A DNA stretch of 64,000 nucleotides from an uncultured Actinomycetes bacterium (GTDB taxonomy: Bacteria > Actinomycetota > Thermoleophilia > Gaiellales > JALYLC01): assembly GCA_963743275.1 (NCBI GenBank), contig CAVUPB010000002.1, positions 168,863 to 232,862 on the forward strand, read 5' to 3'. Under the pieces are notes generated by a model. The model saw nothing but the letters and a program-made list of their open reading frames with translations. It was not told where the DNA came from and ran no database searches. The position numbers and the translations under genes are program-made. This document shows, piece by piece, positions 50,886 to 62,617 of this stretch; the first letter of the stretch is position 1; the number at the start of each line of letters is the position of its first letter.

Positions 50886-51473
50886 TCAGCCGGTCATCGC
50901 GTAGCGGAGCGTGCCGGACGCCGGTGCGAGATCGATGCCGCCGCCGGGCCCCTGCGTCATCTCGCGCGCCGCGGCGACCGAGAAGGCGAACCAGGTCGCC
51001 TTGCCGAGGGTGCGGCGTGGGATGGAGAACGTCAGGCTCGCGCCGCGCGTGGCGATCTTGAAGCGCGCGATCTGGCGCGACTCGACGGGAATCCCAGGGC
51101 CCCCCTGCTTCACCATGAGGCCGGTCGCGGACGGGCCGTGCGTGCCCAGGGCGAAGTTCGCGCCGGGCCACTCACCGCCGGGTAGGAGCGGTCGCGGCCC
51201 GAGCGGCGGGACGTCGATGCTGATCAGCAGCATGTCGACCCCGCCGGCGCGGGTTGGGGCGCGCAGCGGGGGAGCGGTCGCGAACCTGACCTGGAACGTG
51301 ACCGCCGACCTGGTGTTGGAGATCCGCAGCGCGACGAGGTCGGGGCCCGCTCCGCCCTTGACGTCGCCGCTGCGGTCGGGATACGTCCTGGCCGCGAACG
51401 CCGCCCCGGAGCCGAGCGACAGGGCAGCGAGCACCGCTGTGCCCACGAGTGCGCTTCGCCAGATCGCCATCAT
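50886..51473 (-). CDS. Secreted hypothetical protein
   Basis: Signal peptide MMAIWRSALVGTAVLAALSLGSGAAFA and a GC3-biased ORF. No known domain recognised. Confidence 0.6.
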   Translation of the reverse strand: MMAIWRSALVGTAVLAALSLGSGAAFAARTYPDRSGDVKGGAGPDLVALRISNTRSAVTFQVRFATAPPLRAPTRAGGVDMLLISIDVPPLGPRPLLPGGEWPGANFALGTHGPSATGLMVKQGGPGIPVESRQIARFKIATRGASLTFSIPRRTLGKATWFAFSVAAAREMTQGPGGGIDLAPASGTLRYAMTG

Positions 51474-54707: not shown

Positions 54708-56036
54708 ATGGCGTCCCACGACAGCGCGAGCCCGGCAAGCGATCTCGAGACGCCCGTGAGTGCCACACCGCTCGCCGGCGGCGTCTCCGGCGGGCGCCTC
54801 GCGGCCGCGCGTGCCCTGCAGGGCAGGATCGGCAACGCCGCGGCCGCACGCGCGCTGATGCGGGAGCCCGAGGGCAGCCCGCCGCCGGCCGCCGTGGCTC
54901 CCGCCGGGGCCGCGCCCCCGCCGGCGGCGGCCCCGAGCAACGTGAAGGGCTCCTACAAGCTCACCTACACGCATACGTTCGATCAGACGCCTCCGACCAA
55001 GATCCCTCCGATCTTCGAGTACGAGGGCGTCAAGATCGGCGGCGAGCTGGAGTTCGAGCCCGAGGGGCCGGGCGGCGGCGAGGAGAACAAGGGCGCGAGC
55101 AGCTCGACGAAGATCGCGCCGATCGCGGGCGCGAGCTCGAAGAGCGGTCATGGCGCCGGGCCCAACGTCGGCGGCGAGGTCAAGCAGGAGAGCGCCCTCG
55201 ATCCGGTCGTGGGCGGCATCCTCGACGGCGTCCAGCCGAAGTTCGACCGCGGGATCCAGTTCACGAGCCGGGACGGCCTCGAGGCCGGCGGTGGCGTCGA
55301 GTTCGAGGGCAAGGCCCACAGCTTCGCGGTCCACTTCAAGATCGTCGAGTGGGAGCCCGGCAGCAAGCCGAAGTTCGGCGTGGTCGAGCCCGAGTTCAAA
55401 GAGGTCGAGTTCAGCAAGCCGCACGTATCGGTTCCCGGCCTCGGAACCGGCACGCTCAAGTTCTCCGGCAAGGTGGCGCTGATCGTCGGGCCCGATCTCG
55501 TCAAGCTCGTCGAGGAGCTGGTCGAGCGCTTCGGCAAGGAGGTCGTGATCGACGCCGCGTTCGACGCCGGGATCGCGCTCGTCGGCGTCGCGACGGTGGC
55601 GGCGACCGTGTGGGAGATGCTGTACGCCGAGCAGGAGGGCCGCGAGGAGATGGACGCCGTCCTGGCGGCGCGCGACGACATCGTCGCCTACTGCAGCGCC
55701 TACGCCGCCGTGTCGCAGGGCTACGAGCACAAGGGTGGCGGAAAGGCCGCCGAGGAAGGCGCCGCAGCGGCCAGGGCTGCGCTCAAGAAGGGCGCCAAGG
55801 GCACGAAGCCCGAGGGCCTCGTGGCCGACGCGAAGCGCGCCGCGGGCGGGGACATCAAGATGGAGGTCTACCCGCTCTTCCGCGCCGAGGCGCGCAAGAA
55901 GCTCGTGGCCGACTGGAACCGCAACCACCGCGTCAAGAGCGCGCTCTACAGCATCGTGCTGATGGGCGACATCGACGGCGGCCCGCTCGGCGGCTACTTC
56001 GACCAGGTGATCTGGGCCGACCGCTTCCCGGGCTGA
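54708..56036 (+). CDS. Hypothetical protein: N-terminal LQxxxGNxA leader-like motif, Pro/Ala linker, Lys/Glu/Gly-rich beta-like region and a helical C-terminal part with one hydrophobic segment
   Basis: ALQGRIGNAAAARALM near the N-terminus, then PPPAAVAPAGAAPPPAAAP, and the hydrophobic AAFDAGIALVGVATVAATVW. TATCAT-7 nt-ATG upstream. No catalytic domain recognised. Confidence 0.65.
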   Translation: MASHDSASPASDLETPVSATPLAGGVSGGRLAAARALQGRIGNAAAARALMREPEGSPPPAAVAPAGAAPPPAAAPSNVKGSYKLTYTHTFDQTPPTKIPPIFEYEGVKIGGELEFEPEGPGGGEENKGASSSTKIAPIAGASSKSGHGAGPNVGGEVKQESALDPVVGGILDGVQPKFDRGIQFTSRDGLEAGGGVEFEGKAHSFAVHFKIVEWEPGSKPKFGVVEPEFKEVEFSKPHVSVPGLGTGTLKFSGKVALIVGPDLVKLVEELVERFGKEVVIDAAFDAGIALVGVATVAATVWEMLYAEQEGREEMDAVLAARDDIVAYCSAYAAVSQGYEHKGGGKAAEEGAAAARAALKKGAKGTKPEGLVADAKRAAGGDIKMEVYPLFRAEARKKLVADWNRNHRVKSALYSIVLMGDIDGGPLGGYFDQVIWADRFPG

Positions 56037-57810: not shown

Positions 57811-58795
57811 GTGATCATCGACAGCGCCGTCTACCGCAACGGGGCGCGCGACCCCGAGCTCTCGTCGTACGAGGACCTCTTCACCGCCTGCCAGGGGGGC
57901 GACGCCCTGGCATGGCTCGGGCTGTACGAGCCGACGGGCCTCGAGCTCGAGTCGGTCGCGCACACGTTCGGCCTCCACGAGCTCGCCGTCGAGGACGCGG
58001 TCAAGGCCCACCAGCGCCCCAAGCTCGAGCGCTACGGCGACACGCAGTTCCTCGTCCTGCGGCCCGCGCGCTACGTCGACGAGACCGAGACCGTGGTCTT
58101 CGGCGAGGTCGACATCTTCGCCGGGCCGAGCTTCGTGATCACCGTCCGCCACGGCGAGGCGCCCGATCTCGAGTCATGTGCGGCGCGCGCTGGAGGCACG
58201 CCCGGCGCTCCTGGCACGCGGGCCGCTCGCGATCGTCTACGGCGTCCTCGACCACCTCGTCGACTGCTACCAGCCGGTCGTCGCCGGGCTCGAGAACGAC
58301 ATCGACGAGATCGAGGACGAGGTCTTCAGCGGCAGCGCCACGGTCTCTCGCCGCATGTACGAGCTGACGCGCGAGGTCATCGAGTTCCAGCGCGCGACGA
58401 AGCCGCTCACCGGCATCCTCGCCCGCCTGATCGACCTCCCGGGCGTCGACGACGAGGAACGCCGCTACCTGCGCGACGTCCAGGATCACGCCATCCGCAT
58501 CGAGGAGCGCGTGGACGAGTTCCGCACGCTGCTCCAGAACATCCTCTCCGTCCACCTGACGCTCGAGACGAAGGCGCTCACCGAGGTGGCCGTCAGCCAG
58601 AACGAGCAGGTGCAGAAGATCTCGGCCTGGGCGGCCATCCTCTTCGCCCCGACGCTCATCGGCACGGTCTACGGCATGAACTTCAAGGACATGCCGGAGC
58701 TCGGGTGGCGCCTCGGCTATCCGATGGCGATCGCGCTGATGGTCGCCGTGAGCGTGGCGCTCTACCTCATCTTCAAGCGCCGTCGCTGGATCTGA
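57811..58795 (+). pseudogene. corA: Second CorA family transporter with an apparent 1-nt frameshift near 58171-58180
   Basis: The N-terminal part runs to VRHGEAPDLES in one frame. VRRALEARPALLARGP...VYGMNF...FKRRRWI follows in the +1 frame (ORF 58178-58795). Confidence 0.8.
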
Positions 58796-58930: not shown

Positions 58931-59356
58931 ATGCCCGGCAGGAAGATGCTCAGTCGCGGGTACACGACGTTCATCGCGTTGCTGTGCACGGCTGCGGTCG
59001 CGTATGCGATCCACGCGAACGGCGAGGCGGCCAAGGCCGGTCGCGCCGAGGCGCGCGCGCAGAAGTGGGAGCGCTACGCCCGCGCGACCCGGGCGCACCG
59101 CAAGCAGACCGCGAAGAGCTTCGCGGTGCTCGTGCGCCAGTACAACAAGCTCGCGCGCAACGCGACGGCCGAGCAGCGCCGGCTGCTCGCGACGCTTTCG
59201 CGTGCGCGCAAGCAGGCGGCATCCGCGCGCCCGAGCGGCGCTCCGCCCGTCACCTACGCGACGCAGTCGCTCACGATCTCCCAGCCCACCGTGCAGGCGC
59301 CCGCGCCTGCGGCGGCAGCAGCCGCGCCCTCCGAGCCCATGACGAAGACGAGCTGA
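58931..59356 (+). CDS. Membrane-anchored coiled-coil protein; paralog of the N-terminal part of gene 60224
   Basis: TM helix YTTFIALLCTAAVAYAI, then a charged helical region. It aligns by eye with gene 60224 (AAK.G...ARA..WE......F....RQY..LAR.....QRRL). Confidence 0.6.
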   Translation: MPGRKMLSRGYTTFIALLCTAAVAYAIHANGEAAKAGRAEARAQKWERYARATRAHRKQTAKSFAVLVRQYNKLARNATAEQRRLLATLSRARKQAASARPSGAPPVTYATQSLTISQPTVQAPAPAAAAAAPSEPMTKTS

Positions 59357-59360
59357 TCCG

Positions 59361-60220
59361 ATGGCTGACCTCTCGAAGCACCGTGGTATCGCGTCCGCAC
59401 TGCTCGCCGCCGGGGCCATCGGCGGGGGCGTGATCGGCGGCGCAAGCGTGATCGTGAAGGCCCGCGGCGCGGGCACGCCGGCGGCGGCCGCCGGCGCGAC
59501 CGCTCTGCCTGCGACGGCCGGGGCGGCGCCGGCGCCCGCGGCCAAGCACGTCGTGGTCAAGGGCCTGCGGAAGTGGCGGCCCGCGAAGCTCCCCAAGCGC
59601 CTCGAGCTCGCGCCCGTCGTGCGTCACGGGCACAAGGTCGTCACCGTCGTGACGCCGGTCGCCGTGGCCGCTGCGGCGCCGAGCGCGAGCACGCCCACGC
59701 ACGCGAAGAAGGCGGCGAAGCCGCACAAGCGCCGCGCACGCACGCACAGAGCCACGCGAAGCCGGCCAAGAGCGCGAAGGGGGCGGCGCCCAAGAAGGCC
59801 GCGCCGAGCACGCAGCCGTCCACGGATCCCGGGACCGGCAGCACGTCCTCGCCCGCGCCGGCTCCGTCGGCGCCCGTGGCGCCGGCGGCTCCGGCCGCGC
59901 CGCCGGCACCGCCGGCGCCCGCGCCCGCCGCGCCGCCGCCCCTGCCGCTGGTTCCCACCGGGGCGGTCGTGATCACGGGCAAGGCCGTCGCGGGGAAGAC
60001 CCTGACGGCGTCGTGGACGGGCGCCGACCCCGCGACGACGACGTACCAGTGGCTGCTCTGCGACAAGGACGGCAAGGCCTGCCAGCCGATGCCGGGCGAG
60101 ACGAACGCGACCTACGTGCCGAAGTCCGCCGACCTCACCCTGACCGTGCGCGTGAGCACCGTCTGCGGCACGTACACGTCGACCTCCAGGGCGACCGACC
60201 AGATCGAGCAGGGCGGCTGA
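59361..60220 (+). pseudogene. Membrane-anchored Pro/Ala-rich protein ending in a YQWxxC Ig-like module; apparent frameshift in a (CGCA)3 tract near 59735-59748
   Basis: The first frame gives the TM helix ASALLAAGAIGGGVIGGASVIV ... THAKKAAKPHK. The next frame gives SHAKPAKSAKGAAPKK...GKTLTASWTGADPATTTYQWLLCDKDGKAC...TVRV. Confidence 0.6.
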
Positions 60221-60223
60221 GCG

Positions 60224-61157
60224 ATGGGTCGCTACACCAAGGCCTACACGGGGACGCTCGCGATCGTGTGCGCCGGGTCGATCGCGGTCGCCGTGCGGGC
60301 CAGCGACAAGGCCGCGAAGGTCGGCGAGCTCGACGCCAGGGCCGATCGCTGGGAGACCTGGGCGAACAACGAGCGCCTGCGCGACGAGCGCGCCTACGCG
60401 CGCTTCAACGAGGTCGCACGCCAGTACCGCCAGCTCGCCCGCCGGGTCGAGCGGTCGCAACGGCGGCTGCAGCGCGAGATCGCCGCGACGCGCTCGATCG
60501 CACCGCCGCGTCGTCGTCGGCCAGCCGATCATCACCTACGTGCGCGTGCGCAAGCTCGTGCCCGTCGTCAGCGCGCCCTCTGCGGCGGTGCCCTCGCCGT
60601 CGACGGGCGGGGCGCCCGTGGCCGTCACCGCGACGCAGCAGAAGGCGGCGACCGGCAAGGGGCAGAAGCCGCTCACGCCGACGAAGCCGAAGAAGGCGTC
60701 GCCGCCGGCGCCGGGCGGCTCGGGCAGCGGGAGCGCGCCCGCGACCGGCACGGGCACGCCGGCCGATCCGGGCGGCGCTCAGGGCGGTGGCAGCGCGACC
60801 GCCGGCCCGCCGCCCCCGGCCGCCAACCCGCCGGGCGGCGGGACGACGACGACGCCTCCGGCGACGGTCACCGCCCCGGTCAACACCAAGCTGCCCGCGA
60901 TCATCGGGGTGGCGCAGTCGAGCAAGACGATCTCGGCCGATCCGGGCTCGTGGACGGGCACTCCCACCAGCTTCACGTACCAGTGGCAGCGCTGCGACGC
61001 CGCCGGCGCGAACTGCGTCGTGGTCGGCAACGGCCAGTCCTACACGTGCGTGCCCTCCGACATCGACAAGACCATGCGGGTCGCGGTCGAGGCCAAGAAC
61101 AGCGCCGGCTCCGCCGTCGCCGTCTCGGCGGCGTCGCCGAAGACGAAGCCGAGCTGA
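60224..61157 (+). pseudogene. Membrane-anchored coiled-coil plus Pro/Ala/Gly-rich linker plus YQWxxC Ig-like module; apparent frameshift near 60503-60520
   Basis: The first frame gives the TM helix GTLAIVCAGSIAVAV and a coiled coil, running to RSIAPP. The next frame (ORF 60540-61157) gives PIITYVRVRK...SWTGTPTSFTYQWQRCDAAGANC...MRVAVEAKNSAGS. Confidence 0.6.
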
Positions 61158-61160
61158 GCC

Positions 61161-62021
61161 ATGGGGCATCCGGCCTGGGAGTGGTATGCGATGGGGACGA
61201 CGTGGCGCGTCTTCCACAGCGGCGGCATGGATCAGGCGGATGCCGGCGCGCTCGTCGCCCAGGTGGCGGCCGACGAGCAGCGCTGGTCGCGCTTCCGCGC
61301 CGACAGCGAGCTTTCGCACATCAACGAGGCGCGCGGGGCGCCCGTGCGCGTGAGCGCCGAGACGCTCGACCTGCTGACGGCGTGCGATCACTGGCGCGAG
61401 GTCACCGACGGTGCGTTCTCGCCGCTCGTGGGCGATGCGATGGCGGCCTGGGGGTACGCCGCGAGCCGCGACGAGCACGCGCTCGGCGCGGGCACGAGCC
61501 CCGGTGCCGTCACGATCCCGCGCGACCGGCTCGTGTTCGACCCCGATTTCCGGCTCGCCCGGGTTCCCCCGCAGGCCCGCCTCGACCTCGGCGGCATCGC
61601 CAAGATGTGGTCCGCGCGGCGGGCGGCGGCCCTGCTCGTCGAGCGCTGCGACGATCCGTCCCTGCTCGTCGAGGCGGGGGGCGACATGGTCGCCGCGCGC
61701 GGAGACCACCTCGTCCGCGTCGAGGCGCCCGGCGATCACGCGATCACGGTGCGGGCGGGCCAGGGCATCGCGACGTCGGGCTGGAGCCGCCGTCACTGGA
61801 CGAACGGCGACGGCGAGCAGGCGCACCACCTGATCGATCCCGAGACCGGCGCCCCCGGCCCGCGCGTGCAGGCGACGGTCTGCGCCGACGATCCGATCGA
61901 GGCCGAGATCGAGGCGAAGGTGCTGGCGCTGCGCCCGCACGAGCTGACGGCGACCGCCAACGCCGCCCTGCTCTGGGACGACGAGGTGCACTGCAACCAG
62001 GCCTGGAGGGACGCCGCGTGA
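61161..62021 (+). CDS. apbE: FAD:protein FMN transferase (ApbE family), without an evident signal peptide or lipobox
   Basis: AMGTTWRV, FSRF..DSELS..N, DLGGIAKMW, GIATSG and HHLIDPETG motifs. Confidence 0.85.
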   Translation: MGHPAWEWYAMGTTWRVFHSGGMDQADAGALVAQVAADEQRWSRFRADSELSHINEARGAPVRVSAETLDLLTACDHWREVTDGAFSPLVGDAMAAWGYAASRDEHALGAGTSPGAVTIPRDRLVFDPDFRLARVPPQARLDLGGIAKMWSARRAAALLVERCDDPSLLVEAGGDMVAARGDHLVRVEAPGDHAITVRAGQGIATSGWSRRHWTNGDGEQAHHLIDPETGAPGPRVQATVCADDPIEAEIEAKVLALRPHELTATANAALLWDDEVHCNQAWRDAA

Positions 62022-62617
62022 TCCTCTGGGAGGTGACCCGGGCGAGCGCGTTCATCGCCTACGCCTGCTACACGATCGCGGTCGTGTGGGGGATCGCGCT
62101 GACGGCGCGCTCGTTCCGCCCGCCGGTCGCGCCGCAGTTCGACTACCACCGCTTCGTCGCGGTGCTCGGCCTGCTCGCGCTCGCCACGCACGTGACGACG
62201 CTGCTCGCCGACCGCTTCGCGCACGTCGAGGTCGCGACGCTGCTGGGAATGGGCGCATCGTGGTCGGTGCGCGCGGGCGTCGCCGCGTTCTGGCTCGCCA
62301 TCGCGATCCCGCTGAGCTTCCGCCTGAAGCAGCGCAAGTGGCTCTCGCAGCGCTTCTGGCGGCGCTTCCACTACTTCGGCTACAGCGTCTGGGCGCTCGC
62401 GCTGACGCACGGCGTGTGGGTCGGGACCGACACCGGCTCGACCTATGCGCTGCTGGCCTACGGCCTCTCGGCCGCCGCCGTCGCGGGCACCGCCTGGTGG
62501 CGCTGGTTCGAGGTCGTCCCGAAGTCGGCGCAGAGGAGCCGGCCGGCCGCGGTGGCGGCCGCACCGGCCCCGCGGGTCATCCGGCCCGAGGGCGAGCCCG
62601 AGCGACAGGCGGCGTGA
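62018..62617 (+). CDS. Ferric-reductase-like transmembrane domain protein (MsrQ/YedZ-like)
   Basis: Six predicted TM helices with paired His in helices (HRFVAVLGLLALATH; FHYFGYSVWALALTH). The GTG start overlaps the apbE stop (GTGA). Confidence 0.75.
   Translation: MILWEVTRASAFIAYACYTIAVVWGIALTARSFRPPVAPQFDYHRFVAVLGLLALATHVTTLLADRFAHVEVATLLGMGASWSVRAGVAAFWLAIAIPLSFRLKQRKWLSQRFWRRFHYFGYSVWALALTHGVWVGTDTGSTYALLAYGLSAAAVAGTAWWRWFEVVPKSAQRSRPAAVAAAPAPRVIRPEGEPERQAA

Follow-up and report, generated by a model that had tools for sequence, protein, structure and literature searches.

A leaderless ApbE, a ferric-reductase-domain cytochrome and small anchored proteins with a conserved C-terminal tail: a candidate flavinylation module in an uncultured Gaiellales bacterium

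Introduction

Flavin transferases of the ApbE family attach flavin mononucleotide (FMN), taken from flavin adenine dinucleotide (FAD), to the last Ser or Thr of the motif D-x-x-[ST]-G-A-[ST], for which seven residues are enough (PMC12052999). This motif is a tolerant one; the Asp is nearly dispensable, D-to-A having a minor effect, Ser is accepted, and the changes G-to-A and A-to-V merely reduce the yield, whilst engineered tags perform best at a protein terminus (PMC12052999). The closest described systems to the one considered here are the MsrQ-like flavinylation clusters, common in Actinobacteria, in which ApbE is found beside a PF01794-type haem membrane protein and transmembrane electron transfer is presumed (PMC8238504). 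Here we describe a five-gene operon at positions 58931-62617 of a 64,000-nucleotide stretch of contig CAVUPB010000002.1 from an uncultured Gaiellales bacterium (the whole stretch is referred to below as the window), which encodes three membrane-anchored proteins (g1, g2 and g3), an ApbE and a ferric-reductase-domain (FRD) cytochrome (g5).

The operon shares with the MsrQ-like clusters the pairing of ApbE with a haem membrane protein; however, it is without an FMN_bind protein, an NAD domain and a leader, and has instead proteins that end in a conserved tail motif. The MsrQ-like set of 2021 was collected only where ApbE or the FMN-bind protein had a signal peptide, and leaderless ApbEs were discarded in that survey, which places the clade described here outside its scope; about 4% of the ApbE-bearing genomes were left without a known substrate (PMC8238504). 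Cytosolic ApbEs do exist; like the present enzyme, the one in Klebsiella pneumoniae and the ApbE domain that trypanosomatid fumarate reductase carries have no export signal, but they act on a soluble fumarate reductase that bears a canonical motif in its FMN_bind domain, whereas the partners here are membrane proteins (PMC12052999). Neither the tail-protein family nor the pairing of an FRD protein with a leaderless ApbE was found described in literature searches.

A first-pass annotation of this DNA had proposed a flavinylation and electron-transfer module with no recognised acceptor, and that core holds; the ApbE-cytochrome pair is conserved and neither an FMN_bind domain nor the canonical motif is present in the operon, ten flanking genes or the related loci; what had been observed was largely right and its interpretation right in outline, but the specific acceptors put forward were wrong. 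We suggest, with a confidence somewhat below even, that the operon is a variant MsrQ-like, flavinylation-associated FRD module for transmembrane electron transfer in which the acceptor would be a C-terminal tail acting as a "flavin-tag". There is a fair chance that the module will bring to light a new class of substrate for ApbE.

Results

Operon conservation and the ApbE clade

The five gene starts reported previously (58931, 59361, 60224, 61161 and 62018, all on the forward strand) match the listing of open reading frames (ORFs), and the junctions agcTGAtccgATGG, ggcTGAgcgATGG and agcTGAgccATGG, followed by a GTGA overlap, were verified in the sequence; g1 to g5 are a single operon. The full five-gene arrangement is found in three other loci (L002, L003 and L004; related loci are numbered in this manner throughout) in which the flanking genes are unrelated, and beyond these a homolog of g5 follows ApbE in 57 of the 64 loci with sufficient downstream sequence, across ApbE identities of 32-81% and contigs of 40-76% GC.

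Around this pair the gene order changes with distance. At about 50-55% ApbE identity the order is a two-component system, a small anchored protein ending ...VTRTSP...GGDDGG, a g1-like protein ending TTHTS, ApbE, the g5 homolog, a Pyr_redox_2 reductase and a small ferredoxin, and the modules resembling immunoglobulin (Ig) domains that are carried by g2 and g3 are missing. At 32-40% identity (contigs of 40-67% GC) it is a coiled-coil anchored protein, an anchored "tail" protein of 80-110 residues, ApbE and a g5 homolog with six helices. Named sources among the few related sequences that have them are Gaiellales, Solirubrobacteraceae and Conexibacter, which point to Thermoleophilia for the lineage of the window.

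The ApbE gene (61161..62021, forward strand) encodes 286 residues and matches PF02424 with 141 bits (cut-off 25.6; E 6.8e-41), and ApbE/Ftp chains in the PDB with E-values of 4e-18 to 4e-6 (relatives 1vrm, 3pnd and 4xgw). The FAD/Mg-binding and catalytic motifs DLGGIAK, AGGD, ATSG and HxIDP, all but the second of which had been called intact, show no variation among 25 homologs (48-100% identity). The identity of the enzyme is thus firm, and transfer of FMN to a protein Ser or Thr is predicted from it. The absence of a signal peptide or lipobox was also noted correctly; the protein begins 10 residues ahead of AMGTTW. This is a property of the clade. In the 120 homologs listed (48-100% identity), about 20 residues at most precede the conserved AMGT/ATGT and none has a leader, one of those listed having an N-terminal extension of 46 residues which is non-hydrophobic. 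Across 74 related loci ApbE likewise starts 5-20 residues before the fold, usually through a TGATG overlap with the upstream stop, and is leaderless. A scan of genome contigs with ApbE returned only a Planctomycetota locus (L001; metagenome-assembled genome contig JAWKUN010000005.1), which served as an outgroup and whose ApbE (ORF at L001:6191-8284) is 31% identical with a signal-peptide-like N-terminus.

Several features of the surroundings of these loci were recorded. In the lower-GC lineage a gene for an HtrA-like serine protease (trypsin-like and PDZ domains, judged by eye) often lies upstream (L054, L064, L078, L040 and L055). In six distant relatives (L005, L006, L008, L010, L011 and L019) genes for a histidine kinase and an OmpR-type response regulator precede the module, a Pyr_redox_2 reductase and Fer4_15 ferredoxin follow it, and P-type ATPase, rubrerythrin, cytochrome c, cytochrome bd and Usp genes are nearby, flanks which hint at a regulated role in redox or metal stress.

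The C-terminal tail motif

The candidate acceptor is the C-terminal end of the small anchored proteins. By translation, g1 ends in P-M-T-K-T-S (59336..59353, forward strand), of which Ser141 is the candidate site for FMN, and g3 ends in P-K-T-K-P-S (61137..61154, forward strand), directly upstream of the ApbE start and identical in L002, L003 and L004. The ending T[KR]TS is common to the 11 orthologs of g1 that are intact. More widely, in a non-redundant set of 51 tails from proteins encoded just upstream of ApbE, 42 have [ST]-x-x-S as their last four residues, and in 50 it lies no further than three residues from the end; as [ST]xxS occurs inside the tails at 3.7% per position, the binomial probability of this terminal enrichment is about 2e-51. 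Position -1 is Ser in 43/51, position -4 Thr or Ser in 45/51, and position -2 Gly, Thr, Ser or Ala in 50/51. The endings range from TTHTS, TTKTS and TTRTS in the high-GC group to RTGGS, RTRGS, TRTRAS, SKAS and ...SSR in the others.

The motif is also recovered when gene order is disregarded. A g1-family profile searched against 1.84 billion representative proteins gave 54 matches, 34 of which end P-x-[ST]-x-[TA]-S (Pro at -6 in 33/34, [ST] at -4 and Ser at -1 in 34/34), and a further seven carry the motif no more than four residues from the end; the remainder are mostly truncated or frame-shifted in appearance, or are long multi-stretch false positives. Endings close to the canonical motif occur within the family, with seven [ST]-G-T-S and one E-P-T-S-G-T-S.

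Since the last codons of the tail overlap the ribosome-binding region of ApbE, the nucleotides were examined. Both TCN and AGY codons are used for Ser, those for Thr, Gly and Arg vary freely in their third base, and the tail is kept where the next gene is not ApbE, as with g1 before g2 and with a protein of L021 (ending TTTSSPHP) before the cytochrome gene. The use of two Ser codon families and the third-position variation indicate that selection acts on the protein and not solely on the ribosome-binding site; together with the non-ApbE neighbours they rule out the idea that the tail is a mere Shine-Dalgarno sequence for ApbE (Gly-Gly being GGNGG).

The conserved tails thus appear to fit what ApbE needs in a target, in register and in class of residue, and they seem to be the only conserved Ser/Thr feature tightly linked to ApbE besides a G-T-D loop in the cytochrome. 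They are probably a better candidate acceptor than the look-alikes named by the first-pass annotation, which had missed them. A weak possible second site is S-R-A-T in g2 (60185..60196, forward strand), which is part of a conserved TSR[AT]TDQIE segment, lies eight residues short of the C-terminus and fits the [ST]-x-A-[ST] form of the motif.

In some relatives companion small anchored proteins have a long tail rich in Asp, Glu and His (e.g., DDDHDDDDEDEHEDEHEDEEDHEDED; L046:2482-3156, L070:5139-5630, L079:4055-4576 and L005:5221-5607), one of them with a PepSY domain. These companion tails may bind metal ions.

Search for a flavin acceptor

The absence of a recognised acceptor, as claimed originally, was borne out. 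FMN_bind (PF04205) was not matched at E<=1 by any of the five products, nor at E<=0.01 in ten flanking genes, and no Pfam match to DUF2271 or DUF3570 was found in the cluster at E<=1. No coding frame contains the canonical D-x-x-[ST]-G-A-[ST], whether in the window or in 88 related loci (L002-L089; about 567 kb in all), and the single exception is outgroup L001, whose ApbE carries DAISGAT in a C-terminal extension; there, enzyme and substrate domain are probably fused. No MsrP-type molybdoenzyme, such as would accompany MsrQ, is encoded in the operon or in ten flanking genes.

Two look-alike motifs that had been offered in place of the canonical one did not survive comparison with homologs: AAGATAL of g2 is missing from the g2 orthologs, and the T at the end of TGST in a g5 loop varies, with P, R, V, I, S and other residues in its place. 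A further candidate, D-P-G-T-G-S-T in the g2 linker, was rejected as it is not conserved in orthologs.

The acceptor could instead be a canonical FMN_bind, DUF2271 or other known-domain protein elsewhere in the genome, in which case the anchored proteins would be structural or scaffolding partners and their tail would serve for docking, O-glycosylation or phosphorylation. In favour of this, our reading covered 64 kb of a contig of 627 kb, folded domains are what ApbE is known to modify (PMC11334425), the cytosolic ApbE of K. pneumoniae serves an unlinked soluble reductase (PMC12052999), and L003 has a separate Ferric_reduct and NAD_binding gene 4 kb off. However, in dozens of loci from different lineages ApbE is tightly tied to both a tail protein and the cytochrome, no coding frame of those loci holds the canonical motif, and the tail resembles that motif in register and residue class. 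On balance we think an acceptor of this kind unlikely.

The anchored proteins and their reading frames

The proteins that carry the proposed flavin-tag are simple in architecture, and each of g1, g2 and g3 has the N-terminal hydrophobic helix which had been noted before. The g1 product (58931..59356, forward strand) is a bitopic protein of 141 residues, anchored at its N-terminus, in which a long basic helix leads to a disordered Ala/Pro tail that finishes in PMTKTS; in its AlphaFold2 model residues 3-98 form a single helix (the anchor and a very basic helix), followed by a disordered tail with a predicted local distance difference test (pLDDT) score of about 45-58. The g3 product (60224..61157, forward strand; assigned from tblastn and paralogy) is a paralog of g1 to which a Pro/Gly/Thr linker and one A9-type Ig-like module have been joined before PKTKPS. 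The module said to be common to two of the products is the N-terminal part that these two share, at 33% identity over 131 residues (E 6e-17). In g2 (59361..60220, forward strand; assigned from the phase of GC at the third codon position, GC3, from orthologs and from the Pfam family IG_AIR9), an anchor is followed by a Pro/Ala/Lys linker and one A9-type Ig-like module. Its anchor differs from that of g1 and g3, and in its N-terminal part it is similar to the protein called 'smallTM' in distant loci. After the basic helix, a strand-like V/I-x-Y motif is seen in g1 (PVTYAT, 59240-59260) and g3 (IITYVRV, 60520-60545), and it is kept in many of their relatives (VVYxTT, TVYRTV, VIRYTP).

The C-terminal modules of g2 and g3 are probably Ig-like, as noted before; counted with their orthologs from four loci, 7/7 match IG_AIR9 (PF23197; best E 3.7e-7), although the copies in the window fall below its gathering cut-off of 27.5 bits (full-length g2 21.1, g3 15.3, the g2 module alone 24.6). 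In their YQWxxC...C pattern they resemble the A9 domain of AIR9; here, however, a single copy ends a bacterial anchored protein. A profile of the module found no solved relative among PDB sequences, and no model in Pfam or NCBIfam matched any of the small anchored proteins. The modules appear to be an addition specific to this sublineage, missing from the wider family, and being lineage-specific they cannot serve as a general acceptor, the role that the first-pass annotation had considered for them.

That annotation had the positions and junctions of the genes right but took g2 and g3 to be intact. As the window is 72% G+C, open frames alone say little, and coding frames were set by GC3 phase. 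In g2 the frame switches at about 59,720-59,750 (GC3 phase and three-frame translation), the new phase reaching the stop at 60220. In g3 there is one extra base at 60,500, with frames at 60224-60499 and 60501-61157 by the same two approaches, and tblastn searches with the g3 orthologs of L003 and L004 gave high-scoring segment pairs at 60224-60499 in one frame and 60501-61154 in the next. The ORF listing splits g2 into 59361-59972 and 59573-60220, and g3 into a frame from 60224 and one at 60540-61157. Orthologs are unbroken single ORFs (g2 of 293 and g3 of 306 residues in L003; 285 and 293 in L004). The adjoining upstream gene for a CorA Mg2+ transporter (57811-58795) also lies in two frames, with a break near 58,172 and a C-terminal part (58178-58795) that matches Pfam CorA with E 1.4e-36, and GC3 phase changes without a nearby stop codon at about 7493, 14076, 15912 and 24741 mark some four more candidate breaks. 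Scattered changes of this sort suggest an error-prone, long-read assembly. Comparable errors are present in other genes of long-read-style contigs (g2 of L002, several genes of L089 and a fusion in L007); L089, the closest relative at 81.5% identity to the window, has its own assembly errors, and alignment with it helped only at 60,500.

With intact orthologs, a broken CorA gene alongside and similar faults in related contigs, the breaks in g2 and g3 are likely to be consensus indels of the assembly and not biology. Were they real, the module would be decaying in this genome, with only g1, ApbE and g5 functional, and two breaks within 0.8 kb and a third in the adjacent gene are what such decay might leave; however, GC3 stays at coding level (at least 0.9) on either side of each break without accumulation of stops, the further candidate breaks lie over the rest of the window, and sister contigs ('contig_N' records) show the same type of error, so we judge decay to be quite unlikely.

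Elsewhere in the window, two sizeable ORFs are in coding phase and without a Pfam match, one at 54720-56036 (forward strand) for a Gly/Ala/Lys-rich protein of 438 residues, and one at 50886-51473 (reverse strand) for a protein of 195 residues with a signal-peptide-like start.

The cytochrome

The last gene, g5 (62018..62617, forward strand), encodes an FRD cytochrome b of 199 residues, assigned by alignment, AlphaFold2 and Foldseek. Of its earlier description as a six-helix bis-His protein the histidines stand, His44 and His58 on the second transmembrane helix and His118 and His131 on the fourth being invariant in 32 sequences, but the model (pLDDT 87) has five membrane-length helices and not six; the lower-GC homologs have an additional N-terminal helix, which makes six. 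Against Pfam Ferric_reduct (PF01794) the window protein scores 13.1 bits (E 0.1), below the cut-off of 28; its positional orthologs in L038 (42.2 bits) and L065 (30.2 bits) exceed the cut-off, and homologs P0157 and P0161-P0163 carry a precomputed PF01794 annotation. The top Foldseek matches are the transmembrane domain of NOX5, STEAP1/2/4 and DUOX1, ranks 1-4 (NOX5, STEAP1 and STEAP2) having probabilities of 0.94-1.0 and template-modelling scores of 0.45-0.54, with weak E-values of 0.05-0.35.

The best structural match is thus with the NOX5 transmembrane domain and short bacterial FRE (bFRE; PDB 5o0t; PMC3591440), with which g5 shares His pairs 13-14 residues apart on two helices and a His-Arg pair at the inner site (PMC3591440). 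However, in comparison with these g5 has five helices instead of six, no dehydrogenase domain and an extra conserved G-T-D (136-138) in a predicted outer loop. At these positions 32 homologs and distant lineages have an invariant G136, with T137 (or Ser) and D138 (or Glu) near-invariant. The fold is also that of Escherichia coli MsrQ (YedZ) and STEAP1-4, and JGI annotation names g5 homologs YedZ; in MsrQ and STEAP, nevertheless, one of the inner His is missing (Arg77 stands in its place in MsrQ) and flavin occupies the site instead of haem (PMC12525009), whereas g5 keeps all four. With these four His and His44-Arg45 retained, g5 is grouped with the di-haem NOX/bFRE type, an assignment made from sequence and model, and the label MsrQ-like that it had been given is inexact.

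In L007 (6001-7482) an apparent ApbE-cytochrome fusion of 493 residues (P0097) is present. It was rejected as evidence on topology, since a protein 98% identical to it, taken from 48 short-read records, has a normal end; the fusion is a 1-nt assembly error at the overlapping stop and start.

The cytochrome might itself be the acceptor, a self-contained flavocytochrome with FMN on the near-invariant Thr137 of the G-T-D loop beside the outer haem ligand His131. The conservation of this loop is in keeping with such a role, the ApbE-g5 pairing is the most conserved feature of these loci, and the flavinylated membrane subunits NqrB and RnfD provide precedents (PMC11334425). However, x-G-T-D is out of register with [ST]-G-A-[ST], the loop is predicted to lie outside and so meets the same problem of topology as the tails (see Discussion), and the equally conserved tail motif would be left unexplained; we regard this alternative as improbable. 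It is also very unlikely that the ApbE homolog modifies no protein and is instead a cytoplasmic FAD-binding or FAD-hydrolysing partner in flavin trafficking that supplies non-covalent flavin to the cytoplasmic face of g5 or docks as a flavin module, for although the whole clade is leaderless, FRD-family members with flavin at the cytoplasmic face exist (FMN in E. coli MsrQ, FAD in STEAP; PMC12525009) and the ApbE/Ftp family includes FAD pyrophosphatases (PMC4767422), the four His and His44-Arg45 of g5 indicate that its inner site should hold haem and not flavin (PMC12525009), FMN is not limiting in the cytoplasm and the transferase motifs of ApbE are intact.

Discussion

We therefore return to the tails as candidate flavin acceptors. 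In the mechanism proposed, ApbE would transfer FMN from FAD to the terminal Ser of the anchored proteins, namely Ser141 of g1, the last Ser of g3 and perhaps the Thr of SRAT in g2. As ApbE has no export signal and the acceptor would be the last residue of a short protein, the tail would most likely be flavinylated in the cytoplasm ahead of translocation. The tethered FMN would then exchange electrons with the outer haem of g5, taking the place of the FMN_bind protein of classical MsrQ-like clusters (PMC8238504), and electrons would pass from it to an extracytoplasmic acceptor; metal ions are one guess for the latter, prompted by the acidic, His-rich companion tails in some relatives. Electrons would enter from the cytoplasm. 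The window operon itself encodes no electron donor, and in relatives of the two-component-system and ferredoxin type entry would be by way of the downstream Pyr_redox_2 reductase and ferredoxin.

That the anchored proteins constitute a new class of ApbE substrate, one with no flavin fold, with FMN borne on a C-terminal Ser, modified before export and relaying electrons from the di-haem FRD cytochrome, is to our minds possible rather than probable. As a part of the same tentative proposal, a membrane-tethered flavin "on a string" would reach targets in the cell envelope. The nearest parallel is the engineered Flavin-tag (Tong et al. 2021, cited in PMC12052999), in which an unstructured terminal peptide of seven residues suffices and the motif-final residue is Ser/Thr; that tag, however, is synthetic and has the canonical DxxSGAT, whereas the natural tails, for which modification is a prediction, have P-x-[ST]-x-[TAG]-S.

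A number of points weigh against this proposal. The link between ApbE and the tail is drawn from synteny and resemblance of motifs, and the substrates on which ApbE is known to act are flavin-binding domains that are folded, in contrast to disordered tails (PMC11334425). Within the operon's own clade the tails, T-K-T-S and T-K-P-S, differ from G-A at both central positions, g2 and g3 are frame-broken in the sequence of the window, and the search of this genome for a canonical substrate extended over the 64 kb of the 627-kb contig already mentioned.

The most serious difficulty is one of topology. The charge bias of the anchors in g1, g3 and especially the lower-GC tail proteins (MKxxKxxLR before the helix) predicts an N-in/C-out orientation, yet ApbE is leaderless, and we know of no precedent for the export of a tail bearing FMN. 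The extracytoplasmic display of these proteins that had been assumed is thus drawn from the charge bias and conflicts with the leaderless enzyme. For g5, the charges of loops 1 and 3 (+3 and +7) put the G-T-D loop outside, with which the extra N-terminal helix of the six-helix homologs agrees. The predictions taken together give a paradox, with tails outside the cell and ApbE inside. In principle it could be resolved if the tail were modified in the cytoplasm before translocation; possibly ApbE is exported by an unrecognised route, or possibly the topology predictions are wrong, and the strongly basic helices of g1 and g3 would favour the cytoplasm.

If the tail is the acceptor, it would account for "orphan" ApbEs across several lineages, represented by metagenome contigs of 40-76% GC. 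It would then follow that nature employs a minimal terminal flavin-tag, and the question would be raised of how a flavinylated tail, or a leaderless ApbE, gets to the outer face of the membrane. The combination of a small FRD cytochrome and a tethered flavin would, if the proposal is true, be a new minimal unit for transmembrane electron transfer.

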